NCBI GenBank assembly: GCA_965283805.1
Contig: CBDIPV010000001.1
Span: forward strand, 1,510,925-1,574,924
Origin: Phycisphaerales bacterium UBA1924
GTDB lineage: Bacteria; Planctomycetota; Phycisphaerae; Phycisphaerales; UBA1924
Reading direction: 5' to 3'
DNA: 64,000 bases
Numbering within the stretch: the stretch's first letter is position 1; each line of letters starts with the position of its first letter. Positions 2,354 to 54,927 of this stretch are shown in pieces. The position numbers were made by a program, and so were the translations under genes. The notes beneath the pieces are model-generated. The model searched no databases. It was not told the DNA's origin and was given only the letters and a program-made list of their open reading frames with translations.

Positions 2354-3555
2354 CCCTCCGCCTTTCGGACATAGCTGCGCCCGCCCCACTTTGTGGGCGT
2401 GCCCCGGGCCAGATCGTTGGCAGCATCCCAGAAGATGCGGCCTGTGAAGAGCCCACCGATGAAGACGAGCGGGACATCACGCATCGGCGCGTGGCTCATG
2501 CGGTAGATCATGCCCAGCCCGACAAGCCAGCTGATGATCCCCAGCAGCCCCAGCGAAAGGGCGATGGCGTCGATGCCATCGAGCAATGAGAGCGCCACGA
2601 GCACAACACACAGCGCGGGGAGCACGGTGGTCAAGATCGGAATGCGAAGGGCGTAGCGACGCAGCCGTTTGACCTCCCGGTTCGCCGATTCTGTGTAGAT
2701 GCGCTTCCAGCCGCGGGTGTACTCGGGCCAGGTGTCGTACATGCGGCATCGGAGCATCCTGTCTGCCATGAGCAGGCCGCCGCGATAGTTCTGATACATG
2801 ATTCGACGCGCGAACGCGATGTCCTCGAGGATCGCGTCGCGTACCGATTCGTGCCCGCCGATTGCTTTGTAGACCTCCGCGTTGAACATCATGAACTGCC
2901 CGTTGGCAAATGCCCGTTGATATTCATCGGCACGGTTCACACGCAGCAGCGGGTACTGGCGAGCAAGCTCGAAGGCGGTGATCGGCTGGACCACACGCTC
3001 GAACCATGACTCGCTGTTGAGGGTGGAGAGCAAACTGAAGAAATCGAGCTGTCGATCACGCATCAGGGCGATGCACGCACGCACACATGCGGCGTCCATC
3101 TGGGTGTCCGCATCGGTGAAAATCAGCACCTCGGTGTTGCGGGCGTGCTCGCTGTGTTCGAATGCGCAGTGAGCGGCGTGTACCTTGCCCGCCCAATCGT
3201 CGGGGCACTGGTTGATCTCGATGATCTCGAATCGGTCATCGTCGCCGATCGCCTTGCGGGCCACCCCGCTGGTGTCGTCGGTGCAGCGGTCGAGCGCGAG
3301 CACGACACGCATGCGGTCATAATCCTGCTCGCGGAGTGACGCGATGAGCGTGGCGATGTTGCCCGCCTCGTTGTGGCACGGAACGATCACGCAGACGCGT
3401 TGCGTGGGCGGTCGGCGTTCAGCGATCGCGATGCCAGAGCGGGCAGTGGGCAGCAGTCTTTGCGTCCGCCAGACCTGCACCCCCACGGCCAGCCAGTAGG
3501 TCATGCACATCACCGCGCAGAGCATCAGAACCATAATGACAACATCGGGAAGCAT
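2350..3555 (-). CDS. membrane-bound family 2 glycosyltransferase (HpnI / ceramide-glucosyltransferase-like)
   Basis: 401 aa with an N-terminal TM. GT2 motifs are VIVPCHNEAGNI, DRCTDDT and FTDADT, with a C-terminal RGWKRIY region and C-terminal TM helices. Confidence 0.75.
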   Translation of the reverse strand: MLPDVVIMVLMLCAVMCMTYWLAVGVQVWRTQRLLPTARSGIAIAERRPPTQRVCVIVPCHNEAGNIATLIASLREQDYDRMRVVLALDRCTDDTSGVARKAIGDDDRFEIIEINQCPDDWAGKVHAAHCAFEHSEHARNTEVLIFTDADTQMDAACVRACIALMRDRQLDFFSLLSTLNSESWFERVVQPITAFELARQYPLLRVNRADEYQRAFANGQFMMFNAEVYKAIGGHESVRDAILEDIAFARRIMYQNYRGGLLMADRMLRCRMYDTWPEYTRGWKRIYTESANREVKRLRRYALRIPILTTVLPALCVVLVALSLLDGIDAIALSLGLLGIISWLVGLGMIYRMSHAPMRDVPLVFIGGLFTGRIFWDAANDLARGTPTKWGGRSYVRKAEG

Positions 3556-3679: not shown

Positions 3680-5935
3680 TCAGGGGCAACCCGCGCTGAA
3701 TGCCGCTAGGAAGACGCTGACATCAAAGAAGTCGAGGATTCCATCGCCGTTAAGGTCCGCGGGGCAACGCAGGTCGAACGAAACCAGATACCCGGCCGAG
3801 TTGCCGGGGTTGTCGCAGTTGAGTACTGATTGATCGCCCACATTGAGGCGAACGGTGTAGGCGCAGGGCTCGAGTCCGCTCGTGTCCCAGTTCGCGAGCA
3901 CATCACTTGTCACAGGGGTATTGCCCGTGGCGATGGTGACCCACCCGCTGTTGCTCCCGCCGGTGTACTGCACACTCCACCCACCGAGGTTTGTGTCAGA
4001 GGCCGTGCCCTTGATCTCGATGATCTCGCCGGGGCTGCGGTACTCGCAGGCGATGGGTGTGTCGATGAGTGCGATCGGCGCGGTATTGTCAACTTCACCC
4101 GTGAAGGTGACTGTGCGTGAATCGCCGCACACATTGGTGGCCACGACACGGATCTCGTATGCCCCATCGGGCACGCCGAGACCCACGGTGTCCCATTCCG
4201 CGAGCGTGGTGTTGGTTCGTCCTCCGCTGTAGGTTGGACTCGAAGGATCGACTGGCAGGAAGGCACCGCCGGCCATTGGTCGATACTCAACGGTGTATTG
4301 CGTGGTACCGCAGCCGGCGTCGCCGATCGAGCCGAAGATGCACACCGTGCGGCCGACGATCGAAACCGCCGAGCCATCGATGCCCGCGCCGAAGCGGGCA
4401 ATAACCGTATCAAAGTCACTGCCGAGGTAGACAACCGCTTCGTCGCTTGCGGAGATCCCGCCTGTGTTGGTCCCGGTCAGACGCAGCAGGTACTGCCCCT
4501 CGGGGAGCCCGCTGGTGTTCCAACTGGCCAGCGTGTTGTTGATCACCGTGTTTGAACCCGTGGCGATCGTTGTGTAACTGGGAGTCCCCAGACGACGGTA
4601 CTCAAGAATATAGCCGCCGAGCAGGGTGCCCGGCGCGGGGTTCACGGTGCCGGTGATGGTGTTGATCCCCGCACAAATACAGCTCCCATCGCTTGGGTTG
4701 ATCAGGTCAACGAAGGGCGGGGGACCACCAATGACGGTCGATTGGTTGAGATAGATTGAGAGCGAGCTGCTGTTCAGATTCGGTGATGCAGCATCAAGAT
4801 CGCCGTCGCCGTCGAGGTCCACTACCGCGGCTCTCTGTGGGCTGATCTGGGTGACATATGTACTATCGAGCGTGAGCCCTCCCGAGCCGTTGTTGATGAG
4901 CACCGAGAGCCGATCGCCGGTCTCGCTGGCGACAATCAGATCGGGATCGCCGTCGAGCGAGCTTGGGCCACCGTCGATGTCGGCAACCGTGATCGCGATC
5001 GGCCCCGAGGGGACCGCGACATTGACTCCTCCAGTAAAAGTCGGGAATGTCGCGCCGGTCTGCACCCGATTGCTCAGACGCGTCGATACGGTCGCGCTAT
5101 CGCGATTTGCCGTGACGATATCGATATCCCCGTCGCGATCGATATCAACCAGCTGCACATCTTGCGGGTTGTTGCCCACAGGGATGTAGAAGGCGAAGTC
5201 GCCCGAGAAATAGGACCCCGGGCTGCCGGAGATGTTGTACATCACGGTGCATGAGGCGCTGAATGCGTTGGCGGTGACGATATCGGGGAGACCGTCGGCG
5301 TTGAGATCCTGCAGCGCAATCGCTGATGGGCCATTCCCGCCCGTCCCCCCCGCGTTGGTTGTATAGGTGCCGATCGTTGTCCATGACGTTCCAGATCCGT
5401 CGCCGGCAACGACGCTCACAGTATCAGCTGACATGTTGGCACTGACGATATCGGGCTGCCCGTCGGCGTTGACATCGGCGACTGCGATGCTTTCGGGACC
5501 GCTCCCGACAACAAAGAAGACCTCAGGGAGAAACGCCCCCCCGGTGCTGCCTCGCAGCACCGAGACATCGTTGGTCCCGGTGTTTGCAGTAATGAGATCG
5601 AGGTCGCCATCAAGGTTGACATCCGCGGCCCGGATCGCACCCGGGTTCTCGCCGACACCATAGAAGACCGGCGTTTGGAAAGTGCCGTCGCCGTTGTTGA
5701 GCAGCACCGCGACACGACCGAGATTATCTGATGAAGCGGTCTGGAAACAGATTGCGATATCAATATCGCCGTCGCCATCGAAGTCGCCCGATGCCGAATC
5801 GGTCGGGCGATTCTCATCCAACGGAATGTCCGTCCGGGGACCAAAGCCCGCGAACTGGGCCATCGCTGTTCCTGTAGAAAGACATATGCCCGCCAGCAGC
5901 GACCAGTGCCGCGCCTTCAACTTCGCAGAGTTCAT
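3680..5935 (-). CDS. secreted FG-GAP/VCBS-repeat protein with C-terminal GC-type dockerin-like module
   Basis: 751 aa with a signal peptide (LLAGICLSTGTAMAQ). It has repeated D.DGDGD.D / VADVN.DG calcium-binding FG-GAP motifs followed by Ig-like regions. It ends CPADLNGDGILDFFDVSVFLAAFSAGCP-stop. Confidence 0.8.
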   Translation of the reverse strand: MNSAKLKARHWSLLAGICLSTGTAMAQFAGFGPRTDIPLDENRPTDSASGDFDGDGDIDIAICFQTASSDNLGRVAVLLNNGDGTFQTPVFYGVGENPGAIRAADVNLDGDLDLITANTGTNDVSVLRGSTGGAFLPEVFFVVGSGPESIAVADVNADGQPDIVSANMSADTVSVVAGDGSGTSWTTIGTYTTNAGGTGGNGPSAIALQDLNADGLPDIVTANAFSASCTVMYNISGSPGSYFSGDFAFYIPVGNNPQDVQLVDIDRDGDIDIVTANRDSATVSTRLSNRVQTGATFPTFTGGVNVAVPSGPIAITVADIDGGPSSLDGDPDLIVASETGDRLSVLINNGSGGLTLDSTYVTQISPQRAAVVDLDGDGDLDAASPNLNSSSLSIYLNQSTVIGGPPPFVDLINPSDGSCICAGINTITGTVNPAPGTLLGGYILEYRRLGTPSYTTIATGSNTVINNTLASWNTSGLPEGQYLLRLTGTNTGGISASDEAVVYLGSDFDTVIARFGAGIDGSAVSIVGRTVCIFGSIGDAGCGTTQYTVEYRPMAGGAFLPVDPSSPTYSGGRTNTTLAEWDTVGLGVPDGAYEIRVVATNVCGDSRTVTFTGEVDNTAPIALIDTPIACEYRSPGEIIEIKGTASDTNLGGWSVQYTGGSNSGWVTIATGNTPVTSDVLANWDTSGLEPCAYTVRLNVGDQSVLNCDNPGNSAGYLVSFDLRCPADLNGDGILDFFDVSVFLAAFSAGCP

Positions 5936-25304: not shown

Positions 25305-26162
25305 TCAGGGACAGCCAGCGTTGTACGCGGCCAGGAACGCGCTGACATCAAAGAAGTTGACCATGCCGTCATGGTTAAAATCCGCGACCGGATCGTTCGA
25401 GCTGTAGGCGGTTAAGAACACGCTGACATCAAAGAAGTTGACCATGCCGTCATCGTTCAGATCCACCGGGCAGGGATCGATGACGGTGATCCCGAAGTTC
25501 GACATGAGTGACGCCGTGACCTCGTCCTGCTCGCGCTGGCCGATACCGCTGTGCGACAGGAGTATCCGCAATCGATAACTCCCAGATGGGGCCTCAAGGG
25601 GAATCGTTCGTGAGAAGAACACCGAGCCGGTGTTCCCGGTATCGGGAATGCTCTCATCGTAGTAGAAGCCAACAAAGCCACCACCAACAACCGTTTCGCT
25701 GCTCATGCTCAGACGCACGAAGGATTCGAACGCAGTCTCGCTATTTTCGAGCAGGCCATTGACCGTGATCACCCCCTCGCCATCAACAATGAACTGATAC
25801 TCGAGTTCGCTCGAGAGCGTGTGGGCATACGAGCCCATCGCGCCCGGGCTGCCCGAGTCCATGCCAGAGAACGACGAAGACGCAAAGAACGCTCCGCCAT
25901 CCCCATCGAACTCGAACAACTCCCCGTCGGTCTGCCCGGCGAAGGAGCCATTTGAGTTTGAAAACCCAGCATCAGCAACCGCGGACAAGGGTGCCAACTC
26001 AGCCCCTTGATCGTCCACCACGATGACACTGTCCTCTCCGTTGCCGCCGCTGAGCGACAGAAGCGTCCTGCTCGTGACGCTGGAGTACGACGGAGTAGCT
26101 TGCGCAACGACTGTGCTGGTTGCGAACGCGCTCAGAACAAGCACTGTAAAGACCTGAATCAT
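25305..26162 (-). CDS. secreted protein with C-terminal double GC-type dockerin-like module
   Basis: Signal peptide MIQVFTVLVLSAFATSTVVAQA. It ends CPVDLNDDGMVNFFDVSVFLTAYSSNDPVADFNHDGMVNFFDVSAFLAAYNAGCP-stop. Confidence 0.75.
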   Translation of the reverse strand: MIQVFTVLVLSAFATSTVVAQATPSYSSVTSRTLLSLSGGNGEDSVIVVDDQGAELAPLSAVADAGFSNSNGSFAGQTDGELFEFDGDGGAFFASSSFSGMDSGSPGAMGSYAHTLSSELEYQFIVDGEGVITVNGLLENSETAFESFVRLSMSSETVVGGGFVGFYYDESIPDTGNTGSVFFSRTIPLEAPSGSYRLRILLSHSGIGQREQDEVTASLMSNFGITVIDPCPVDLNDDGMVNFFDVSVFLTAYSSNDPVADFNHDGMVNFFDVSAFLAAYNAGCP

Positions 26163-26344: not shown

Positions 26345-28531
26345 TCAGGGGCAACCCTGCTGGTATAACTGCAGGAACAGTGACACATCGATAAAGTTGT
26401 ACATCTCGTCTTGATTAAAATCGATGCTCGGATCCTCATTCAGGTATGCACCGATGAACGCCGCGACATCAAAGTAGCTCAGCATGCCGTCAAGGTTGAG
26501 GTCCGCCGGGCATGGCACACACGACGGGTCCAGCGACACACCGACGGTCCCGGTATACGAGACCAGCATCATCTGCTCGCCATCGCTGACGATCGAGAAC
26601 TCATTGCTCGCGGGTGTCTGCGCCCCGATGAGCCGTGCCCCACCGCTTCCCCGCAGGTCATACACCAAGACCCGTTCGTACCATGCATTCCAGTAGGCAA
26701 ACTCGCCGGCCACCACAAGCTCGCTTCCCTCGCCCAACAACGGCGCGGTATCGAACTGGCTGAAAGTACTCGCATCTGCGCTGTACAGCTTCCCCTCATC
26801 CGAGTTCACACCATAGAAGTTGAGATTGCTGGTCTGGATCACTTCAAAGAGTGTGGGGGCAGGGTAATCAATCCGCGCCGGGCTGAACGGGTTGGCAAGG
26901 TCCACCACCGAGACCAACGGCACCTCGTCATCGCCCTGTTCGATCGCATGGCTGAGGTAGAGCAGCCCGTCGCTGAACAACGCATCGGCGTAGTCATTCG
27001 AATGCAGCTTATAAAATGCCTTGAATGAGATGTTCAGTGGATCCGCGACATCGAGCAGCGCGTGCTCGTTGCGCTCCACCTGCATCCAGAGCGTATTGCC
27101 GTCCAGCCCGAGGTCCACGATTTCCGGGAACGCCTGGTAATGGAGCAGCTGGACCGGTTCGGCTGGCGCAGAAAAATCAACGATCTCCAACCCGTTCCCA
27201 TACCGACTCATGTACACGATCTGATCTTTGACTTCAAGAAAATCGACGACATCCAGATTATTCAGATATGACCCGATGATGCCCGGATTCGCCGGGTCCT
27301 GCACATCCAGCACGAGCACGCCGTTCTGCCGCTGTTCTTTGATGAAGTCATAGGTCTGGTACGACGCGTACAGCACCCCATCCTCGATCGCACTCGCCTG
27401 CATATAGAAAGAATCGAAGTTCTGAACATCGTCGAACGCAAGCCACCCCTCGCTGAATGGAACCGTGCGATCCGCGCGGCTCATATCGAGAATACTCATG
27501 CCCATGTCATACGCTGACACAACCACAAGCCCCTCGGTTCCAACCGCAAAGTCGTACCCGTCGTACCCAACGATCCCTGTCAGCCCCTCGAACACTGGCA
27601 TTGACGGATCTTGGAGCGAGATCTTCAGCACGCTCGCGCTGTCTTCGGTTCCGATATACAAATCGGTTCCGTCGAGCTCAAGGGAACTGATCCGATGGAG
27701 CGCAAGCCCCTCACCGAGCTCGTAGATCGCGGTCTCACTACGAACATCAAGCTCGTCTCCACCATGATTCGTCTCGATCACCTGAAACTGCGAACCATCT
27801 CCAATGACGAGGAGCCCCGAATCCAAAGTGAGGTGCGGGAAGAAGAACTGATTGTAAGGAAAGGTCTCAAGCAGCACCGGATCCGTGGGGTCTGAAACAT
27901 CAAACACGAGCAGCTCATCGGTATCGATCGCCACATACACACGCGCGCCCTCAGCAACAATCGCGCGGGTCCTCCCGGAGAGAGGCCGCTCACTCATCAC
28001 CACCGGGCTGGCCGGGTCGGCGATGTCAACAACTCGCAAGATGTCCGAATCGTCGGCGACAAACATGCGATCACCCACGACCGCATATCTCGGATTGAAC
28101 GCTGCAAGCTCAACCAACCCCGCCTGCACGATGTTGCTCGGATCCGAGACATCGAAGATCCCCACCCCCGCATCATCAGTCGATGCATACACCACACCAT
28201 CAACGAGCGAGATCTCGTACACGGCGTTGCCAACTGGGTAGGTCCCCAGCACGACGGGCGCAAGCGGCACCGTGAAATCCACAACGACGAGCTGCGTATC
28301 AAGCTGAGCATCATCAAAACTCAAAAAATAACCTACGCGACCTTCAAGCTGAATCGAGTATGAATCACTCTGGGGTAAATGCATGTATTGACCGACATAC
28401 CCGCGCACGCTGCACAGAATCCCGCCCGGCTGTGTCTGGGCCGCCGAATGCGCCGTGAATAGACCAAGCACGAGCAGGACGCCTGGGTTCAAAGCCGATA
28501 CCGCCGCCAACATTCGATTACTGCTGATCAT
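26345..28531 (-). CDS. secreted LVIVD-repeat beta-propeller protein with C-terminal GC-type dockerin-like module
   Basis: Signal peptide from ATG 28531. Recurrent LVIVD-like motifs are GIFDVSDPSNIV, LRVVDIADPASPVV, LLVFDVSDPTDPVL and VLVLDVQDPANPGI. It ends CPADLNLDGMLSYFDVAAFIGAYLNEDPSIDFNQDEMYNFIDVSLFLQLYQQGCP-stop. Confidence 0.75.
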   Translation of the reverse strand: MISSNRMLAAVSALNPGVLLVLGLFTAHSAAQTQPGGILCSVRGYVGQYMHLPQSDSYSIQLEGRVGYFLSFDDAQLDTQLVVVDFTVPLAPVVLGTYPVGNAVYEISLVDGVVYASTDDAGVGIFDVSDPSNIVQAGLVELAAFNPRYAVVGDRMFVADDSDILRVVDIADPASPVVMSERPLSGRTRAIVAEGARVYVAIDTDELLVFDVSDPTDPVLLETFPYNQFFFPHLTLDSGLLVIGDGSQFQVIETNHGGDELDVRSETAIYELGEGLALHRISSLELDGTDLYIGTEDSASVLKISLQDPSMPVFEGLTGIVGYDGYDFAVGTEGLVVVSAYDMGMSILDMSRADRTVPFSEGWLAFDDVQNFDSFYMQASAIEDGVLYASYQTYDFIKEQRQNGVLVLDVQDPANPGIIGSYLNNLDVVDFLEVKDQIVYMSRYGNGLEIVDFSAPAEPVQLLHYQAFPEIVDLGLDGNTLWMQVERNEHALLDVADPLNISFKAFYKLHSNDYADALFSDGLLYLSHAIEQGDDEVPLVSVVDLANPFSPARIDYPAPTLFEVIQTSNLNFYGVNSDEGKLYSADASTFSQFDTAPLLGEGSELVVAGEFAYWNAWYERVLVYDLRGSGGARLIGAQTPASNEFSIVSDGEQMMLVSYTGTVGVSLDPSCVPCPADLNLDGMLSYFDVAAFIGAYLNEDPSIDFNQDEMYNFIDVSLFLQLYQQGCP

Positions 28532-28667
28532 GTGTGTCCCCACGCCATCGCCGGCACACAAGCCCTAACACAAAGCGTGTCAGCACCGCTACCAGCTGGA
28601 ATCATCACAGCCCGATACGGTGCATCACACGGTTCGGTTGTAGAAGAACATGGAATTCATGCCATTC

Positions 28668-37087: not shown

Positions 37088-37516
37088 ATGAGAATCGATC
37101 CCAAACTCCCCCTGCTCGCCATGATCGGGCTGTTTCTACTCCCCGCTCAGATCGGCTGCGAATCCGTGCCCGCCCTGCGTGAGAGCAAGGCCTGGCACGG
37201 CAGCACCCCGATATACGCCACCTACCGCTTTGGAGAGCTCAAAACCGAACTCCCGCCTGGGACCTCGCTCGAAACAGTCAATGCCGTCGCCAGAGCCGTG
37301 CTCTATCGACAGGGGCACATCATCGAGGAGGCCTCCTTCACGCCCTCCGACGGGCGCATCATCGCGCTCGGGTCGGGGCAGATGCCCTACAAGCGAGTCC
37401 GGATCAGCACCATATACGACGGCGGCGGGGTCATCATGACCATCAACATCGACCCAGCCACCGAGAGCCGGTCGAGATCGATGCTCGAATCGATCCTGCA
37501 GTCACTCGGACTCTGA
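37088..37516 (+). CDS. hypothetical lipoprotein
   Basis: MRIDPKLPLLAMIGLFLLPAQIGC is a lipobox-like signal. 142 aa. Confidence 0.6.
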   Translation: MRIDPKLPLLAMIGLFLLPAQIGCESVPALRESKAWHGSTPIYATYRFGELKTELPPGTSLETVNAVARAVLYRQGHIIEEASFTPSDGRIIALGSGQMPYKRVRISTIYDGGGVIMTINIDPATESRSRSMLESILQSLGL

Positions 37517-37521
37517 CAAAA

Positions 37522-37680
37522 TCAACATGCCGCATCCGCCGCCCGCACCGCCACGCAGAACCGTGCAATCTTCTCCGCGCTCTTCACACCCGGCGCATCC
37601 TCCACGCCCGAAGACACATCCACCGCGCCAGCGATGATCACCGGCTTCTGAAAACCCGCAAGGGATTGCAGAAGAATCGC
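37522..37680 (-). pseudogene. decayed duplicate of the trpF 3' end
   Basis: 37521-37627 aligns to 39069-39175 with 5 mismatches in 107 nt (manual alignment). A 51-nt in-frame deletion follows, then ~40 nt of weaker similarity. It encodes ...FQKPVIIAGAVDVSSGVEDAPGVKSAEKIARFCVAVRAADAAC. No N-terminal trpF sequence is present. Confidence 0.85.
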
Positions 37681-37810
37681 TGATTTAGATACGAATGAGA
37701 AGGCGAGCGAGGATTCTGGCAATTCGCTCTTTTGAAATCTTGGTTTGTTTGTAAGGTAGAGTTTGGCTGGATTGCCAGCCTTCGATTCATCAGCATGCAG
37801 GAGATTGATC

Positions 37811-39001
37811 ATGAATAGTTCGATGTGTGGCACAATCATCGCCTCCTTCGGGATCGCAGCGGCAGCCATGGCGAATGTGGCGGATTCAAACGAGGGAGGA
37901 CCGGGTGACAACTGCACAGCGCCAGTGAGATCGGTCGTGCAGATCGACCAGCCCAGAGAGGTCGCGGTGTCAGCTTCAACCGCATTCGTGCTCACAAACT
38001 CTTTCGGGCTCATGAGCTTTGATATCAGCGATATCTCGAACCCGATTCCGCTTGATACGGTAGCGCTGGGTTCATCAACCACTCGTTTGCTAATCGACGG
38101 GGATATCGCCTACTGCCTGTCCGTCAATGCTCGCCTTTACACGGTGGACATCAGCGATCCTCAAAGCATGACCTTGCTCAGCGACTTTGAGGTTCCTATT
38201 ACGGGCCTTTTGCCGCTAACCGACGGCATGGCGGTTCAGGATGACCTTGTCTATGTCACATCAACATTGTTCACGAACGAAATGGTGATCGTTGATGTCA
38301 GCGATCCATCCAATCCTGTTTCGGTAACGGACTTCGTCGCACCAGCAAATGAAGTGAACAGTTGGCAAAACATTCAGGTCCAGGGTTCGTACGCATACAT
38401 CAATGGCGCGTACGACATCGGGAATACGGGTGATTTCACAGGCGGCATCGGTGTCTGGGACATCTCAGACCCTATGGATATCACTCGGGTCGGTTTTGTT
38501 GCCACTACGGTTGAATCGTTTGTACTGCAGGACGACTACCTGTATATCGATTCGCCCGGGCTTGTGATCGCGGACATAAGCGACCCTATCGACCCAGCAA
38601 TCATCTCTGAGGTGAATGGGGCAGGCCCTGATATGGGTGTCTCGGTAGATGGGCAGTTTGCCATGTACGAAGACAAATACTTCAATGTCGCCGATCCCGC
38701 GAATCCCTATCAAATCTATCGTTTCAGCTCCTTATCGAATGTCGTGCAGATGACACTGCTCAGAGGCAATGTAGTGTACGCGATCACAAACGCCGGGCTG
38801 GAAATCGTGAATATCGAAGACTGCGGCATGGTCTGTGCTGCTGATTTGACCGGCGACGATCGCGTGAACTTCTTCGATATCTCACTGTTTCTTCAACTGT
38901 ACACGAACCAAGACCCCGGAGCGGACCTGAATGGTGACAACAGCTACGACTTCAACGATGTAAGCGAGTTCCTGAAACTCTACAGCTTCGGCTGCTCGTA
39001 A
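37811..39001 (+). CDS. secreted LVIVD-repeat protein with C-terminal GC-type dockerin-like module (lower-GC insertion)
   Basis: ATG 37811 follows an AGGAG Shine-Dalgarno. Signal peptide MNSSMCGTIIASFGIAAAAMA. Motifs are LMSFDISDISNPIP, LYTVDISDPQSM, MVIVDVSDPSNPV, GVWDISDPMDI and LVIADISDPIDPA. It ends CAADLTGDDRVNFFDISLFLQLYTNQDPGADLNGDNSYDFNDVSEFLKLYSFGCS-stop. Confidence 0.8.
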   Translation: MNSSMCGTIIASFGIAAAAMANVADSNEGGPGDNCTAPVRSVVQIDQPREVAVSASTAFVLTNSFGLMSFDISDISNPIPLDTVALGSSTTRLLIDGDIAYCLSVNARLYTVDISDPQSMTLLSDFEVPITGLLPLTDGMAVQDDLVYVTSTLFTNEMVIVDVSDPSNPVSVTDFVAPANEVNSWQNIQVQGSYAYINGAYDIGNTGDFTGGIGVWDISDPMDITRVGFVATTVESFVLQDDYLYIDSPGLVIADISDPIDPAIISEVNGAGPDMGVSVDGQFAMYEDKYFNVADPANPYQIYRFSSLSNVVQMTLLRGNVVYAITNAGLEIVNIEDCGMVCAADLTGDDRVNFFDISLFLQLYTNQDPGADLNGDNSYDFNDVSEFLKLYSFGCS

Positions 39002-39028
39002 CCCGCCTCATTCGACAATACATCACAC

Positions 39029-39056
39029 GGCGGGAGCATGCTCCCGCCGTTTTTTA
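39029..39056 (+). terminator. rho-independent terminator
   Basis: ggcgggagc-atg-ctcccgcc followed by gTTTTTTATT. Confidence 0.8.
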
Positions 39057-39069
39057 TTGTCGCAAATGA

Positions 39070-39711
39070 TCAAGATGCCGCATCCGCCGCCCGCACCGCC
39101 GCGCAGAACCGTGCAATCTTCTCCGCGCTCTTTACACCCGGCGCATCCTCCACGCCCGACGAAACATCCACCGCGTACGGACGCAGCGTGCGGATCAGCT
39201 CCGCCACATTCGACTCATCGACCCCGCCCGCGATGATCACCGGCTTCTCGAAGCCCTCAAGATACCCCTTGAGCTTTGACCAATCGAACGCCATGCCCTC
39301 GCCGCCGTCGGAACCATCGATCAGGATCGCGTCGATCTCCTCGACCTTGCCCCATCGCTTGATCTGCGACTCGATCGTCGCGTCCTCATACTTAAACGCC
39401 TTGATCACCCCCGGGCCGCACTGCTGCACAACATCCACCGGCTCTTTGCCATGCAGCTGCATGGTGTGCGCCGGGCACTTGTACTCAAGCTCGCAGAACT
39501 GATCAACATCGAGATCACGCACCACCCCCACCGTGCTCACAAACGGCGGCAGATTGAACATAATTCCCGCCGCGGCTTCGGGATCGATGTATCGGGGGGA
39601 GTCCTCGACAAAGATAAACCCGATCGCGTCAGCCCCCGAGTCGATCGCAGCAAGGGCGGCTTGCGGGGTGGTGATGCCGCAGACCTTGATGCGTGTGCGA
39701 TGCGTGTTCAT
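39070..39711 (-). CDS. trpF: phosphoribosylanthranilate isomerase
   Basis: IKVCGITTPQAALAAIDSGADAIGFIF...DAILIDGS...GMAFDW...PVIIAGGV...AVDVSSGVE is the TrpF pattern. The ATG overlaps the rhomboid stop (ATGA). Confidence 0.85.
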   Translation of the reverse strand: MNTHRTRIKVCGITTPQAALAAIDSGADAIGFIFVEDSPRYIDPEAAAGIMFNLPPFVSTVGVVRDLDVDQFCELEYKCPAHTMQLHGKEPVDVVQQCGPGVIKAFKYEDATIESQIKRWGKVEEIDAILIDGSDGGEGMAFDWSKLKGYLEGFEKPVIIAGGVDESNVAELIRTLRPYAVDVSSGVEDAPGVKSAEKIARFCAAVRAADAAS

Positions 39712-40961
39712 GTGGATGGATCCTCTTTGGGTGGGGTGGTTTGGGGCTGAGTGGTTTGGGGTGGGATGATGCCCGGTGTGGTCTTGTTTGCTGGGGTGGT
39801 CATGCTGCGAACCCGCTCGAGTTCGGCCTCCACGATGGCTCTGGTGTCGCTGTCGAGCGACTGCTCATTGATTTCTTCGAGCATCACGATCGCGCCGGGC
39901 ACATCGGCTTGGTCCTCCGCCCGTGTGCGTGCGATCAGCACATGAATAATGTGCCGCTCGGGGTCCGCCGGATAGCTGCTGAGCAGGCGGGTGAACGCGT
40001 CTGCCGCGTGCTCACGATCACCTCGCTGGTACAGTGCATTGGCGACCTGATACTGCGCATCACGATGCAGGGTCAGCGGCGCTGTTGAATCGTGGCCGAA
40101 CTCGTCAATCAGGCGCAGATACGCGTCCGCGGCCTCGTCGGCTTTGCCCTCGCTGAGCAGCGCCCCGATCTCAGATCGGGCGGTCGCGATGTGCTGCACC
40201 TTCGGATCAGGCGCGGACTTGCGGCTATCACGCATCACCCGGCCCATGCTCTGCTCATGGATACGGCTTGCGCTGGAGAACGCCTTGCGTCGCTGACGGT
40301 GCTTGAGAATCGAGAACAGGTCGTAGGGCTCACGCCGGAGGATGCCCGTACCCAACAGCACGAATCCTGTCAAGATGCCGAAGCCATAGCCCCCCAGATG
40401 CGCAATATTCGCGATCCCGTTGGCAGGCGTGATCACATGCGCGAACAGATCAAGCACCACGAACAGCCCGATCAGCCACCACGACGGGATCATGAATATC
40501 CCGATGAAGATGAACAACACAAAGCATTTGATCCGCGTGCGCGGGAAGAGCACCAGGAACGCCCCCGAGACCGCCGCCACGGCACCCGATGCCCCGATCG
40601 CCGGAGCCGCTTCGAGCGCGATGTGTGCCAGCCCGGAACCCGCACCCCCCGCCAAGTAGAACAGCGCGAACCCGATCCGCCCGAAACGGTCCTCAACCGG
40701 CGGGCCGAAGACCAGCAGGAAGATCATGTTCCCAAAGATGTGCATGAACCCGGCGTGCAAAAAGGCGGATGTGACCAGCTGGTGCACATGAAAATCGAGC
40801 TTCCAGACCGCCCCCCACTGTCCCAGCTTCTCGGCAAAGTCTGGATTGGCGTTATGCAGAACGGCCATCAGAACAAATACACCCAGATTGAGGGCAATGA
40901 TGCCGTGCGTAACGACCGGTTTGCGTTCATTGGGGCGATCTGTGCCCAGTGGGATCAACAC
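39708..40961 (-). CDS. rhomboid family intramembrane serine protease with C-terminal TPR-like domain
   Basis: HAGFMHIFGNMIFLLVFG, GASGAVAAVSGAF (catalytic Ser) and HLGGYGFG (catalytic His). The C-terminal half is helical-repeat-like. GTG start at 40961. Confidence 0.8.
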   Translation of the reverse strand: MLIPLGTDRPNERKPVVTHGIIALNLGVFVLMAVLHNANPDFAEKLGQWGAVWKLDFHVHQLVTSAFLHAGFMHIFGNMIFLLVFGPPVEDRFGRIGFALFYLAGGAGSGLAHIALEAAPAIGASGAVAAVSGAFLVLFPRTRIKCFVLFIFIGIFMIPSWWLIGLFVVLDLFAHVITPANGIANIAHLGGYGFGILTGFVLLGTGILRREPYDLFSILKHRQRRKAFSSASRIHEQSMGRVMRDSRKSAPDPKVQHIATARSEIGALLSEGKADEAADAYLRLIDEFGHDSTAPLTLHRDAQYQVANALYQRGDREHAADAFTRLLSSYPADPERHIIHVLIARTRAEDQADVPGAIVMLEEINEQSLDSDTRAIVEAELERVRSMTTPANKTTPGIIPPQTTQPQTTPPKEDPST

Positions 40962-50597: not shown

Positions 50598-51641
50598 TCA
50601 GTCCTTCCCATCGACCGCGGCTGTGTCGCGGTTCAGCGTCGACCAGCCCTCGCTGCGTCCGCAGGAGGCATCCAGCACGCCCTGCCGCCAGAGGTAGCGT
50701 TTGAGCGGGATCCAATGCATGGCGAGAATGACCAGCATCTCTCGCTTGAGGTCTGGATCACCCAATAAGGCGCGCTGGGGTTTGTTGGCAAATCTCAGGA
50801 ATGTTTCCTCGATCCGCATCGCATCAGGGCGCTCATTGTGGAGTGCTTGCTCGTAGTAGTTCAACACCTGCGGGTCTGTCAAATCGCGTTTGAACAGGTC
50901 GAGGGCGAAGGGCGGGTTGTGGTTGGCGTAGTGCCAGGCGGACTGGCCGAGGAGGTATTCGCGGCGGTGGACATCGAGCGGGGTATAGCGATGATCGTGG
51001 ATCACACGGGCATCGGGCGCGAAGATGATCGGGACGCCCGCAGCTTGCACGCGGTAGGCGAGTTCGATGTCTTCATAGCCGTAGATGTTGTTGAGCGGGG
51101 CGAGGCCGCCGACCTGCTGGGCGATTGCACGCGGCAGCGACATGTTGAGGCCGTAGCAGTCGCGGTAGCCGGCAGGGGCTCGCTGCGTGCTGGGCTCATG
51201 GAAGAACATGATGTCTGACTCGTGAAGCACGAGATCGAATAGGTTGGGAGTATCCTCGCGTTCGATGGGTTTGAAATCGGCGGCACCGGCGACAAAGCAG
51301 GGACCGAACTCTTGCTGCACACTCAGGTGGGCTTCGATCAGATCGGGCTGCGCGTAGGAATCGTCGTTGAGCCAGATGATGAGGTTGCCGGTGGCCAGTT
51401 CATGCAGCGCACTGCGCACGGCGACCGCCGCCTTGAAGTTGAAGCGGCGGAGCGTGGTGATGGGCTTGATGCGATCGGGCACGGCGGGCACGGGCGTGGT
51501 GTGCTCGTCGCCGTCGAGTCCGATGAGGATCTCGACTTGAAGATCAGTTCGTGCGAACACCGTTTGCGCGGCGACGCAGCGCAGGCACTGGTCGATGACT
51601 GTTGGCCTGGCATGCGTCGGGATGAGGATGCTGATGTCCAC
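50598..51641 (-). CDS. family 2 glycosyltransferase
   Basis: MDISILIPTHARPTVIDQCLRCVAAQT, with later DDS and ED acidic motifs. GTG start. Confidence 0.75.
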   Translation of the reverse strand: MDISILIPTHARPTVIDQCLRCVAAQTVFARTDLQVEILIGLDGDEHTTPVPAVPDRIKPITTLRRFNFKAAVAVRSALHELATGNLIIWLNDDSYAQPDLIEAHLSVQQEFGPCFVAGAADFKPIEREDTPNLFDLVLHESDIMFFHEPSTQRAPAGYRDCYGLNMSLPRAIAQQVGGLAPLNNIYGYEDIELAYRVQAAGVPIIFAPDARVIHDHRYTPLDVHRREYLLGQSAWHYANHNPPFALDLFKRDLTDPQVLNYYEQALHNERPDAMRIEETFLRFANKPQRALLGDPDLKREMLVILAMHWIPLKRYLWRQGVLDASCGRSEGWSTLNRDTAAVDGKD

Positions 51642-51930
51642 AGAGGGTGATTGTACTCGACTACGGCCAACGCAGAAACCAACGCTTGGGTATGTTCAAC
51701 GCGACAGATCCCAAGGGCTTAAAGAGGGCGGACCGAAGAGAGGGCGCGACGGTCTCGCAGAAGATGCAGTTCAGGAAAGGAGATTCTGGGTGCCCATTTC
51801 GCCGCTCGTTTGGACTGGATTGTGTGTGCCTGCCCAAATCACCATTGCAACGGCCACCGGTATCCGCTACATTGCTGCTGGAACCATGTGCTGTGATGAA
51901 CTCGCGGCGCTTTATCTGAGAGGGGCCCCT

Positions 51931-53298
51931 ATGTCGAAACTGTGTCTTCGCCGCGCGTTGTTGTCCAGTGCTCTGAGTGCCATCGGGCTGAGCACCACTT
52001 CGGGGTTTGCCTTGGGGCCGGTTGAGTATGAGCTTGAGCCGCTTTACTCAGGATTCCCCGGCCCGGACGACGACTTCGGCTACAGCCTTGCAATCGATGG
52101 TGGGTACATCGCGATCGGTGCACGCTTTGACGACATTGATGGCCAAGACTCGGGGGCGGTGTATGTCTACAACCGCACGGGCCGAAACTTCCTGTATGCG
52201 CCATTCGCGGCCGATGTCGGGCCGGGCGATCTGCTGGGTTACTCGGTGGCTATTGATAACGGGTTCCTCTACGCGACCGCTCCGAATGACGATGTCGATG
52301 GCGTGATCGACGCTGGGAGTGTGTTTGTCTTTGATCTCTTTAGTAATGGTTTTTTTCATAGACGACTCAATGCACCCGTTCTCACTCGATTTGACAACTA
52401 TGGCTGGCATGTCAGCGCGAGCAACGGGCTCGTCATGGTTGGTGCACCCTCAACACTGGTTGGAGGCGTGCAATCAGGCGTCTCGCACGCGTACCTTTCT
52501 TCATCGTTCACATACCTCACTTCACTCGTGCCCAGCGATGGGACATCACAGGGGTTCTTTGGAACACATACAGAAATCACTGGGGACTATGTTGTTGTTG
52601 GTTCCTCAAGGAACGATATCGGAGTCGGGATCGGAGAGTCTGGCTCGGCGTATGTCTACGACTACGCCTCGGGGAATCTGCTCCACAAGCTGATACCAAA
52701 TGACCCACAAGCCGGCACACAGTTTGGTAGTTCGATCGCGATCCAAGGGAATCTCATCGCGATCGGTGCTCCGTTTACCAATGACCGCGGGCCAAACTCT
52801 GGCTCCGTCTATCTCTTCGATGCGATCACTGGGAATCAGGTCGCCAAGATCATCGCCGACGACACGGATGACTTCGACTGGTTTGGCCATTCGGTGGCGA
52901 TGGATGACGATGTCCTGGTCATCGGCGCCACTTACAATGACACCACGAGCGCTGGCAGGGGTTCGGTGTATATGTATGACATCAACACCTTGAGCATGAT
53001 CGACAAGATCGACATCCCTGTTTTCGCGGGCACGAGCGATCGGTTCGGATCGGCGGTTGCCGCAGGCGAGGGCGATATCCTGACTTCGAACTACAACCAG
53101 TTCGATAATGGCCTTGAAACGGGTGTGGCATACTTTGTCGACGCGATCTGCGATGCAGACCTCAATGACGACGGCACGCTCGACTTCTTCGATGTCTCCG
53201 ACCTGCTCAGCGATGAGCCTGACTACAACGGCGACGGCGTCTTCGACTTCTTTGATGTGAGTGCATTTCTGAGTGACTATCAGATGGGATGCCCGTGA
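51931..53298 (+). CDS. secreted FG-GAP-like 7-bladed propeller protein with GC-type dockerin-like module
   Basis: Signal peptide from ATG 51931. Seven repeats of the FG.S(V/L)A..G...(I/V)GA...D.....GSVY(V/L)(Y/F)D type. It ends CDADLNDDGTLDFFDVSDLLSDEPDYNGDGVFDFFDVSAFLSDYQMGCP-stop. Confidence 0.8.
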   Translation: MSKLCLRRALLSSALSAIGLSTTSGFALGPVEYELEPLYSGFPGPDDDFGYSLAIDGGYIAIGARFDDIDGQDSGAVYVYNRTGRNFLYAPFAADVGPGDLLGYSVAIDNGFLYATAPNDDVDGVIDAGSVFVFDLFSNGFFHRRLNAPVLTRFDNYGWHVSASNGLVMVGAPSTLVGGVQSGVSHAYLSSSFTYLTSLVPSDGTSQGFFGTHTEITGDYVVVGSSRNDIGVGIGESGSAYVYDYASGNLLHKLIPNDPQAGTQFGSSIAIQGNLIAIGAPFTNDRGPNSGSVYLFDAITGNQVAKIIADDTDDFDWFGHSVAMDDDVLVIGATYNDTTSAGRGSVYMYDINTLSMIDKIDIPVFAGTSDRFGSAVAAGEGDILTSNYNQFDNGLETGVAYFVDAICDADLNDDGTLDFFDVSDLLSDEPDYNGDGVFDFFDVSAFLSDYQMGCP

Positions 53299-53530
53299 GT
53301 GATTGATCGCGTAGGGCTCGAGGATCAGTTGCAGACAGAGATGAGCCGGGAAGTGGAGGTCTGGTAGAACCTGCTTGCCTGACTCACTGCACTTCAATAT
53401 GAGGCATCAGACTTTGAAATCGCTGATTGCGTGGGAGATTCGTTCGGAGGTATACTGGTTTCGAGTGTCTGAGCGTGCGGCTGATCCTGCTTCGCCGACG
53501 GTTGGGCTCGCTTCTTGAGGGGGGATCTGT

Positions 53531-54844
53531 ATGCGCGTACGAATGGATTTTGGTCCATCTATCCGATCGATGGCCACGGTGGTGATGGTTGCATTGGCTT
53601 CTGCTGCTCAAGTCTCTTGGGCTCAGATTGTGTTTGGCAGCGATCTGATCAGCCCCGGGACGCCGGTGCTCGGTGAGGACTTTGGCAGCAGCGTCGCGAT
53701 GGGTTCGAGTTACATGATCATCGGCTCGGAGTTCTCCGACGATGCGGGGCAGCAATCTGGCGGAGTTTCGGTGCACAGCCGGGCCACCGGTGCATTCATC
53801 CGCAAACTCACCCCGCCTTCTCATTTCCCCTCCGACCTCTTTGGTTCGAGCGTCGGGATCGAGGGCAACACAGTTGTCGCAGGCTCACGCATCAAGGGCA
53901 AGGCCTATCTCTTTGACGCGGCAAGCGGTGCTTGGCTTCGCACGCTTGAACCCTCCGATGGTGCCGCAGCCGCGAACTTCGGTATCTCTTGTGCGATTTA
54001 CGACGACATTGTGCTTGTGGGATCGGTCGGCTCGCCCAATCTCGACGGCACAACCGGCGGGGTCTATGTCTATTCACTGAGCTTCCCCACTGACAACGAG
54101 ATTATTCGTTTACGCCCGGACTTCTTCATGGGCGATGATCGTTTCGGACACAGCGTGGCGCTCAACGATGCGTACGCCGTTGTTGGGGTAAGCAATAGCA
54201 CGAACCATGGCGCGGTCTACATATTCGATATCAATACCGGGGCACGGCTGCATCGCCTTGTACCTGATCCATCGCCCGAGAGTCCGAGCTTTGGGCAGTC
54301 GGTCGCGATTGTTGGGAATCTGGTTGTTGTTGGCGCGAGCCGAGACGCTGATGAGGGCACGCGGGCGGGGGCGGTCTATCTTTTTGACGCGGTCACTGGG
54401 AACCAGCTCTTGAAGCTCACCCCGCCGCAGCTCACGCCGTTTGATAACTTCGGGACTTCAGTGGCCGTGAGCAACAACGCGCTGATGGTCGGCGCACCGG
54501 GTGATATGGGCGCTCGGGGCTCTGTGTATGTGTTCGCCGGCCCGAATCTTGATCTGATCGACATCGTGATTCCGCCCGAAACCAACGGCGGAGACCGATT
54601 TGGAGATGTGATCTCGATCGATGGGGCCGAGGCGCTGGTCGGCGCCCCCAATGTTGACCCGAAACCGGGAGCCGCATATCGGATCTTCCCGCGATGTGCC
54701 GCAGATCTCAATGAGGACGGCACTGTCGATTTCTTCGATGTGTCCTACTTCATCAACTTCATGGTCGACTTCAATGGCGACGGGGTGTTCGACTTCTTTG
54801 ATGTGAGTGCATTTGTGAACTCGTATCAGTCGGGGTGCCCGTGA
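53531..54844 (+). CDS. secreted FG-GAP-like propeller protein with GC-type dockerin-like module (tandem paralog)
   Basis: Same repeat type as 51931..53298 (FGSSVAMGSSYMIIGSEFSDDAGQQSGGVSVH etc.). It ends CAADLNEDGTVDFFDVSYFINFMVDFNGDGVFDFFDVSAFVNSYQSGCP-stop. Confidence 0.8.
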   Translation: MRVRMDFGPSIRSMATVVMVALASAAQVSWAQIVFGSDLISPGTPVLGEDFGSSVAMGSSYMIIGSEFSDDAGQQSGGVSVHSRATGAFIRKLTPPSHFPSDLFGSSVGIEGNTVVAGSRIKGKAYLFDAASGAWLRTLEPSDGAAAANFGISCAIYDDIVLVGSVGSPNLDGTTGGVYVYSLSFPTDNEIIRLRPDFFMGDDRFGHSVALNDAYAVVGVSNSTNHGAVYIFDINTGARLHRLVPDPSPESPSFGQSVAIVGNLVVVGASRDADEGTRAGAVYLFDAVTGNQLLKLTPPQLTPFDNFGTSVAVSNNALMVGAPGDMGARGSVYVFAGPNLDLIDIVIPPETNGGDRFGDVISIDGAEALVGAPNVDPKPGAAYRIFPRCAADLNEDGTVDFFDVSYFINFMVDFNGDGVFDFFDVSAFVNSYQSGCP

Positions 54845-54927
54845 GTTGTTGAATGCAGAGATGAAGTCGGCACGAGTGGTTTGATGAATTTGCTATGCCC
54901 TGACGGGTCATAGCTGGGTGCCCGGCG

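Follow-up and report, generated by a model that had tools for sequence, protein, structure and literature searches.

The locus described here lies in a 64,000-nucleotide (64-kb) stretch of the genome of Phycisphaerales bacterium UBA1924 (assembly GCA_965283805.1, contig CBDIPV010000001.1, positions 1,510,925 to 1,574,924), referred to below as the window, and all positions are given in its coordinates. Its subject is trpF, the gene for phosphoribosylanthranilate isomerase, which is accompanied by a second, truncated copy of its own 3' end, with a single gene lying between the two copies. The trpF gene itself (39070-39711, minus strand) is intact; the product of 213 amino acids (aa) matches PF00697 with 142.5 bits over profile positions 2-191 of 193. 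The left flanking core gene (37088-37516, plus strand) is an open reading frame (ORF) for a putative lipoprotein of 142 aa, without a match in Pfam or NCBIfam, and its stop codon faces the trpF remnant. Between the copies lies only the cargo gene (37811-39001, plus strand), also intact, which encodes a predicted secreted protein of 396 aa with an LVIVD-repeat beta-propeller (PF08309) and a C-terminal GC-type dockerin (NF041540).

The final 193 nucleotides (nt) of trpF (39069-39261, minus strand; copy B) are found again at 37521-37662. Copy B is the functional end of the gene, whereas copy A (37522-37662, minus strand) is an orphan, decayed fragment that corresponds to trpF nt 451-642 minus 51 nt and has kept its stop codon. 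The repeat finder returned the pair as two blocks, 37521-37627 versus 39069-39175 (107 nt, 95% identity, 5 mismatches) and, offset by 51 nt, 37613-37662 versus 39212-39261. In the pairwise alignment the 51-nt gap in copy A is followed by about 35 nt more at 86% identity, and the similarity stops at 37662/39261. The beginning of the repeat is the trpF stop codon, TCA at 39070-39072 and again at 37522-37524. A preliminary description, which relied on manual alignment, had reported the 107-nt recurrence with its 5 mismatches, a start near the stop codon, and a deletion of 51 nt followed by decay to an orphan 3' fragment, and all of this was reproduced.

The two copies score 187 in local alignment, against a shuffled mean of 19.5 +/- 2.2, and form the longest and best direct repeat of the window, in which no third copy of the trpF end was found. 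They are 93% identical and are each other's nearest known relatives, differing by 10 substitutions and one deletion and sharing perfect runs of 26, 31 and 26 nt. In copy B the 51 nt that copy A lacks are bracketed by two imperfect 11-nt direct repeats, CATCCACCGCG at 39165-39175 and CATCGACCCCG at 39216-39226, and because of these flanking repeats the sequence points to slippage as the likely origin of the deletion. Copy B runs on into trpF, whereas copy A is truncated at a non-homologous junction: in the alignment the trpF similarity ends at 37662 and the region upstream of the LVIVD gene begins at 37663, beyond which there is no homology to the trpF of any relative compared. On the minus strand, an ORF of 186 aa (37522-38082) starts antisense within the LVIVD gene, enters copy A and has 47 trpF-like residues at its end; most likely it is no gene and exists only because the remnant is in frame.

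In a genome scan with trpF as the query, the window fell into a clade of uncultured Phycisphaerales. Exact look-ups of its trpF, lipoprotein and LVIVD proteins matched no contig. Nine relatives (L001-L006, L086, L092 and L093) have an empty site, at which the lipoprotein gene converges on trpF with the two stop codons 0-5 nt apart. This is the arrangement that the preliminary description had expected of genomes lacking the insert, and one of the nine is 95% identical to the window in DNA. That relative, L093, is a 2.8-kb contig reached via the 90% protein cluster of trpF and is the closest found. It is 95.1% identical over 2570 nt to window positions 41624-39070, and its positions 2465-2830 match window positions 37627-37262, comprising copy A and the lipoprotein gene, at 95.4% without a gap. 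The stop codon of copy A lies 5 nt from that of the lipoprotein gene, the same spacing as in the relatives with an empty site. Copy A is also colinear with the empty site of L086, a TARA contig and the only one that a metagenome scan with a degenerate trpF-end pattern returned; its empty site is of the L002 type, and it is no closer relative of the window. Since copy A stands in the exact empty-site context of L093, the window has an insertion when compared with this near-isogenic chromosome.

Two side observations concern the empty sites and the cluster by which L093 was reached. The TGATCA found 3' of the copy B stop (39057-39072) is the back-to-back stop-codon palindrome of the empty junctions in L002, L005, L006, L086 and L092. 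The match is too short to be distinguished from a chance one, but copy B too could derive from an empty-type junction. The 90% cluster also contains P0183, a sequence of 192 aa that was deposited as a protein of Laminaria digitata. It is probably bacterial contamination of the kelp assembly, and the deposit hints that the clade lives on kelp surfaces.

In other relatives the same slot is filled, and by different genes. A DUF6717 gene occupies it in L087 (4647-5126), L089 (1349-1864) and L091 (859-1338), whose trpF genes are 91% identical to that of the window; the product has 159 aa, its stop codon lies 1 nt from that of trpF, and no PADLOC match was obtained for the gene. An LVIVD gene fills the lipoprotein-trpF slot in L085 and L007, and adjoins trpF in another synteny type in L010, L081 and L084. 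The three closest homologues of the LVIVD protein of the window (64% identity in L081, 60% and 48% for the other two) are all encoded directly downstream of trpF in convergent orientation, with shikimate kinase on the far side in L081 and L084 and the lipoprotein gene in L085. Homologues of the same length occupy the same slot, and more distant members of the family are found at that place in L007 and L010. No trpF remnant was detected beside the LVIVD gene in any of these five genomes, and none above shuffled background in the lipoprotein-LVIVD spacer of L007 and L085 or in the DUF6717 slot of L087. L084 has two tandem LVIVD genes beside trpF (859-2055, and 2166-2762 plus 2749-3366), mutually 33% identical, of which the second may be frameshifted, being called as two overlapping ORFs.

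The occupants diverge far more than the genes around them. Between L007 and L085, trpF is 90% and the rhomboid gene 79% identical, but the LVIVD proteins only 27%, and the LVIVD types of the window, L085 and L007 share 27-48% mutual identity. The LVIVD protein of the window is nearest to that of L081, yet the flanks of the window are nearer to those of L085 and L007. Close relatives have constant flanking core genes that enclose differing content. The convergent LVIVD-trpF layout with its terminator is the ordinary filled arrangement, found in five other Phycisphaerales genomes. Judged by the filled and empty relatives that they respectively match, the right junction of the insert in the window has the ordinary filled layout and the left junction the ordinary empty one.

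Mismatch coordinates, sliding counts and four-fold degenerate (4-fold) sites delimit a divergent haplotype tract relative to L093 at 37471-39295, which includes the final ~45 nt of the lipoprotein gene, both copies of the trpF end with the LVIVD gene between them, and a further 34 nt of trpF. Outside the tract the DNA is 2-2.4% divergent from L093, with 2% at the 3' end of the lipoprotein gene. Mismatches in trpF are sparse at 39649-39363 (10 in ~350 nt) and dense at 39295-39091 (26 in ~205 nt), and on the left side they are dense at 37621-37471 and sparse beyond. Divergence is 2.4% (10/416) over trpF nt 1-416 and 11.5% (26/226) over nt 417-642 (Fisher p=5.7e-6); at 4-fold sites the contrast is 3/71 (4%) against 11/35 (31%), p=2.5e-4. 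By these comparisons trpF reads as a mosaic, L093-like over nt 1-416 and a divergent allele over nt 417-642. Given the jump in divergence on both sides, the tract is one divergent allele in otherwise near-identical DNA, and such a jump is the mark that homologous recombination in the flanks leaves when alleles are exchanged. The flanking genes also show conflicting relationships, the H+-pyrophosphatase (PPase) genes of L002 and L005 being 98% identical and their trpF genes 80%, so that a border divergence peak and incongruence are both present. No border peaks are visible between L007 and L085, where the background of 14-21% is too high.

Two further features of these flanks deserve mention. 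The PPase gene of L002 (9757-12462) is 98% identical to that of L006 as well as L005, whereas its neighbours, the lipoprotein, trpF and rhomboid genes, reach only 60-80% identity; the PPase gene looks like a recent import between lineages. Divergence between the window and L093 is greatest at 39690-39824, with 24-27 differences per 100 nt and with indels; this stretch encodes the C-terminus of the rhomboid-TPR protein, a tail rich in proline, threonine and glutamine, just upstream of trpF.

Over the 141 nt shared by copy A, copy B and L093, the two copies agree against L093 at 8 sites, only copy B differs at 3 and only copy A at 7. Of these private substitutions, 4 of the 7 in copy A are non-synonymous and all 3 in copy B are synonymous, with 8 falling on the L093 branch. 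The 7:3 ratio, together with the deletion, fits a pseudogene that decays beside a constrained copy.

We consider it probable (at about 0.72) that the gap between trpF and the lipoprotein gene is a hotspot of gene turnover that works without a mobile element, and that the duplication is the scar of a one-sided, homology-dependent integration. Occupants of the slot would be gained, lost and swapped by the homologous recombination of the host alone. The incoming DNA would have extended from a trpF 3' end (at least 193 nt) through the terminator and the LVIVD gene to a point 148 nt upstream of that gene, and would have entered a chromosome of the empty type with the trpF end as its only homology. 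Either the fragment circularised and was then taken up by one Campbell-type crossover, or a linear fragment engaged in a homologous crossover in trpF and in one illegitimate join at 37662/37663; both routes would leave an intact trpF and a truncated orphan copy. The two appear equally compatible with the sequence and both are best explanations, so that the single-crossover capture of a circular intermediate, raised in the preliminary description, stands as one of them. The orphan would later have decayed by its 7 private substitutions and the slippage deletion, with LVIVD and trpF kept intact, and the tract of ~37471-39295 would now pass as one allele from one close relative to another, by double crossovers in the DNA on either side.

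Several observations weigh against this reconstruction. The sample consists of about 14 genomes of the clade plus short metagenome contigs, and in it no clean X-LVIVD-trpF donor haplotype at 95% identity or more was found; for that reason the junction at 37662/37663 is a putative illegitimate one. Gain is preferred over loss by parsimony alone, the closest relatives L001, L002 and L093 all being empty. Further, had copy A been a resident allele of the L093 type, with a divergence of 2-2.4%, at least 8 differences from L093 common to copies A and B would arise with a probability of 0.008-0.02. Because the 8 sites exceed expectation, the scar would not have formed in an L093-like chromosome, which adds a step; it probably formed earlier than the exchange that separates the window from L093, or in another lineage. 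Alternatively, copies A and B may have been partly homogenised by gene conversion. Copy B and L093 are equidistant from the outgroups, so that these do not tell whether the copy B type or the L093 type was the imported allele, and when outgroups were used to find which copy, A or B, was resident, synonymous sites proved saturated at the distance of L001 and L002.

The same event can be read in mirror image, with the LVIVD gene as resident. An incoming fragment of the empty type, carrying S21, the lipoprotein gene and the last 193 nt of trpF, would have undergone a homologous crossover on its lipoprotein side, and its trpF end would have been joined illegitimately to the DNA upstream of LVIVD, so that the trpF fragment, and not the LVIVD gene, would be the inserted DNA. 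The number of events and the product are the same as in the integration of an LVIVD fragment. Genomes with a scar-free order of lipoprotein, LVIVD and trpF exist (L085 and L007), an LVIVD gene next to trpF is widely found and could be the ancestral state, and the tract that diverges from L093 includes the lipoprotein gene end as well as copy A. We nevertheless regard this history as unlikely: the three closest lineages (L093, L001/L087 and L002) have no LVIVD gene at this place, so that gain is the more parsimonious reading. In sequence, the 148 nt ahead of LVIVD are unlike the spacers of L085 and L007, though no likeness would be expected at those distances.

A purely local origin, by tandem duplication or replication slippage without transfer, or an artefact of assembly, can be given next to no credence. 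That the copies are mutually closest, and that 7:3 private changes fit simple decay after duplication, would suit a local event, but the LVIVD gene is missing from the closest relatives. A tandem duplication would have left the trpF fragment between two LVIVD copies and not 5 nt from the lipoprotein stop in the layout of an empty site. As to an assembly error, the source contig is recorded as 3.25 Mb, the copies are separated by 10 substitutions and the deletion, and nothing is shared at 37662/37663 that could have caused a mis-join.

No recombinase, transposase or tRNA was found within ~9 kb on either side of the locus, where the neighbours are DnaB, PNP oxidase, H+-PPase, S21, rhomboid, citrate synthase, PBP2, RodA and GidB, and searches around it with Rfam, for tRNAs and with PADLOC gave no match. 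The absence of an integrase or transposase had already been remarked on, and it holds both between the repeats, where LVIVD is the only gene, and among these housekeeping neighbours. It bears on the proposal that the repeats are attL/attR-like and were left by an element carrying a replacement 3' end, that is, by a site-specific mini-island at the trpF 3' end whose recombinase acted in trans or was lost. The repeats do begin at the stop codon, the carried end does restore trpF as the target, the cargo is lower in GC, and relatives have empty sites; a homologous single crossover, however, yields the same restored target between direct repeats. Moreover, the supposed att site is 193 nt of coding-level homology and not a short core, and the five genomes with LVIVD beside trpF, like the DUF6717 occupant, are repeat-free. 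The repeat-flanked unit has no second copy within the window and does not recur with the same boundaries in those five genomes, and none of the other GC-dockerin genes of the window is flanked by duplicated ends of its neighbours, a pattern for which the preliminary description had proposed a search; the other long repeats are dockerin-coding 3' ends. A mini-island is thus extremely unlikely, and the locus is neither an integrase-type element nor a new kind of mobile element.

The repeats could also be seen as the working parts of a recombinase-free, self-propagating cassette. RecA recombination between copies A and B would then excise a circle with one trpF 3' end and the LVIVD gene, and the circle, once transferred, would re-enter any empty trpF end by single crossover. 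The trpF fragment would serve as a portable homology anchor, which would offer GC-dockerin genes a general route among Phycisphaerales strains. We think it very unlikely that the unit behaves in this way.

With 52.3% GC, the LVIVD gene has a lower value than any other stretch of equal length in the window (mean 61.4%, standard deviation 2.9%, in windows of 1191 nt). The dip seen in the preliminary description therefore survives a sliding calculation, but the neighbouring genes have 61-63% and not the ~70% given there, so that the difference is 9 points and not 20. Nor does it indicate a foreign origin. The LVIVD genes in the slot have 49-62% GC against 58-69% in their flanks, and the DUF6717 gene has 52% against 62.5%, every occupant being lower than its own flanks; the five other GC-dockerin genes of the window have 55.6-60.9% GC, and 0.63-0.72 at third codon positions (GC3), compared with a GC3 of 0.75-0.87 in housekeeping genes. 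Because low GC is common to the slot occupants and to these GC-dockerin genes, it is a property of the gene class and not evidence of recent arrival from a distant source. The GC-dockerin family appears greatly expanded in this genome, with six genes in 64 kb; the others include 25305-26162, 26345-28561 and 3680-5935, all on the minus strand, and in the product of one of these three, which has 738 aa, the dockerin is accompanied by LVIVD repeats and a choice-of-anchor B-like region. Two adjacent genes on the plus strand, 51595-53298 and 53531-54844 (55.6% and 58.2% GC, below their neighbours), look like tandem paralogues. Their 3' ends are alike over 86 nt at 83% identity (53221-53306 versus 54767-54852), and the likeness extends 8-11 nt beyond the stop codon.

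The features of the LVIVD gene agree with the earlier account of a single gene with its own Shine-Dalgarno sequence, signal peptide and strong terminator. Its upstream region (37663-37810, plus strand) is AT-richer and contains AGGAG at 37799-37803, 7 nt ahead of the ATG. The ~30 nt nearest the ribosome-binding site resemble those of the L081 orthologue (score 33 against a null of 16.8 +/- 2.4), and a scan for a sigma-70-like promoter upstream of the gene found none, a result that carries no information in a planctomycete. The LVIVD and trpF genes converge on a GC-rich hairpin with a T-run (39027-39056, plus strand; 10-bp stem with 8 GC pairs), homologous to one in the same position in L081, L084 and L085 and conserved as GGCGGGA...TCCCGCC followed by the T-run (score 34 against a null of 13.1 +/- 2.0 for L084). 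The protein was likewise correctly named as an LVIVD/GC-dockerin protein, both profiles scoring above their curated cutoffs (PF08309, 53 bits against 20.2; NF041540, 38.2 bits against 29). Its N-terminus is hydrophobic and ends in AMA|N. The AlphaFold model (predicted local distance difference test, pLDDT, 82.6) is all-beta over residues 33-334, followed by two C-terminal helices, and beta-propeller structures match it, although a sequence search of the PDB returned nothing significant. From the hydrophobic N-terminus, the GC-type dockerin, which is an 'anchored protein' domain, and the modelled propeller, the protein is predicted to be exposed at the cell surface. LVIVD/GC-dockerin proteins are an uncharacterised and probably surface-anchored family, and a literature search for 'GC-type dockerin' as the name of a domain found no paper.

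If the scar was formed by one-sided integration as we propose, the locus would be a preserved natural product of such an event in an uncultured marine planctomycete, with a near-isogenic empty site for comparison. It would indicate that single genes can enter a housekeeping region with nothing but the recombination functions of the host. The junction of trpF and the lipoprotein gene would be a hotspot of gene turnover in this clade, at which divergent LVIVD/GC-dockerin genes are swapped, and the swapping of such divergent genes points to diversifying selection on these proteins. The case also advises caution, in that lower GC and flanking repeats are insufficient evidence of an integrative element.

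The known systems that the locus resembles fall on both sides of this interpretation. Integrase-borne islands, which use the 3' ends of tRNA, tmRNA and protein genes, share with it the direct repeats of a target 3' end around an insert and the intact target. They differ in that no recombinase is present here, the repeat is long and coding-like, and the same cargo family is found at this site elsewhere without repeats.

The orphan 3' remnants in type VI secretion system (T6SS) and Rhs loci have been attributed to homology-facilitated illegitimate recombination (HFIR) (Kirchberger et al. 2017, PMC5361080). In such Rhs, contact-dependent inhibition (CDI) and T6SS loci, as here, an incoming module with one anchor in a conserved flank pushes the old 3' end downstream, where the remnant persists. 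Here, in contrast, the gene encodes a housekeeping enzyme and not a polymorphic toxin, there is neither an immunity gene nor an array of remnants, and the trpF orphan has no selective reason for retention. In E. coli, a duplication of 109-950 bp of the homologous segment marks a circular single crossover, whereas classical HFIR leads to deletions (Amarir-Bouhram et al. 2011, PMC3240628; on HFIR see also de Vries & Wackernagel 2002 and Prudhomme et al. 2002, as these are cited in PMC3240628 and PMC5361080). As in insertion-duplication and HFIR, the DNA that is foreign to the site is flanked by a duplicated homologous segment, here of 193 nt, one copy of which is truncated at a non-homologous junction; unlike those cases, the event is an old natural one in an uncultured planctomycete.

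The replaced islands of aquatic bacteria are bordered by peaks of mostly synonymous substitutions (Lopez-Perez, Martin-Cuadrado & Rodriguez-Valera 2014, PMC4033161). The trpF locus resembles these replacement flexible genomic islands in having, at one site, very different versions of a gene whose product is probably exposed, and in its sharp synonymous peak at the border (31% against 4% at 4-fold sites). It differs in that a single gene is concerned and not a glycosylation or envelope cluster, in that presence and absence occur besides replacement, and in that exposure of the LVIVD protein is predicted from its signal peptide and dockerin domain alone. In hotspots without mobile elements, recombination has been seen at the flanking core genes (PMC5635113). 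The trpF slot is tiny by comparison, holding zero or one gene (two in L084), and one of its events was not a clean double crossover, the duplicated flank fragment falling outside the general model. It has in common with those hotspots constant flanks, variable content (empty, DUF6717 or three divergent LVIVD types), signals of recombination in the flanks and an absence of mobile genes, and it is a clear example of a known process, ordinary homologous recombination without a mobile element.

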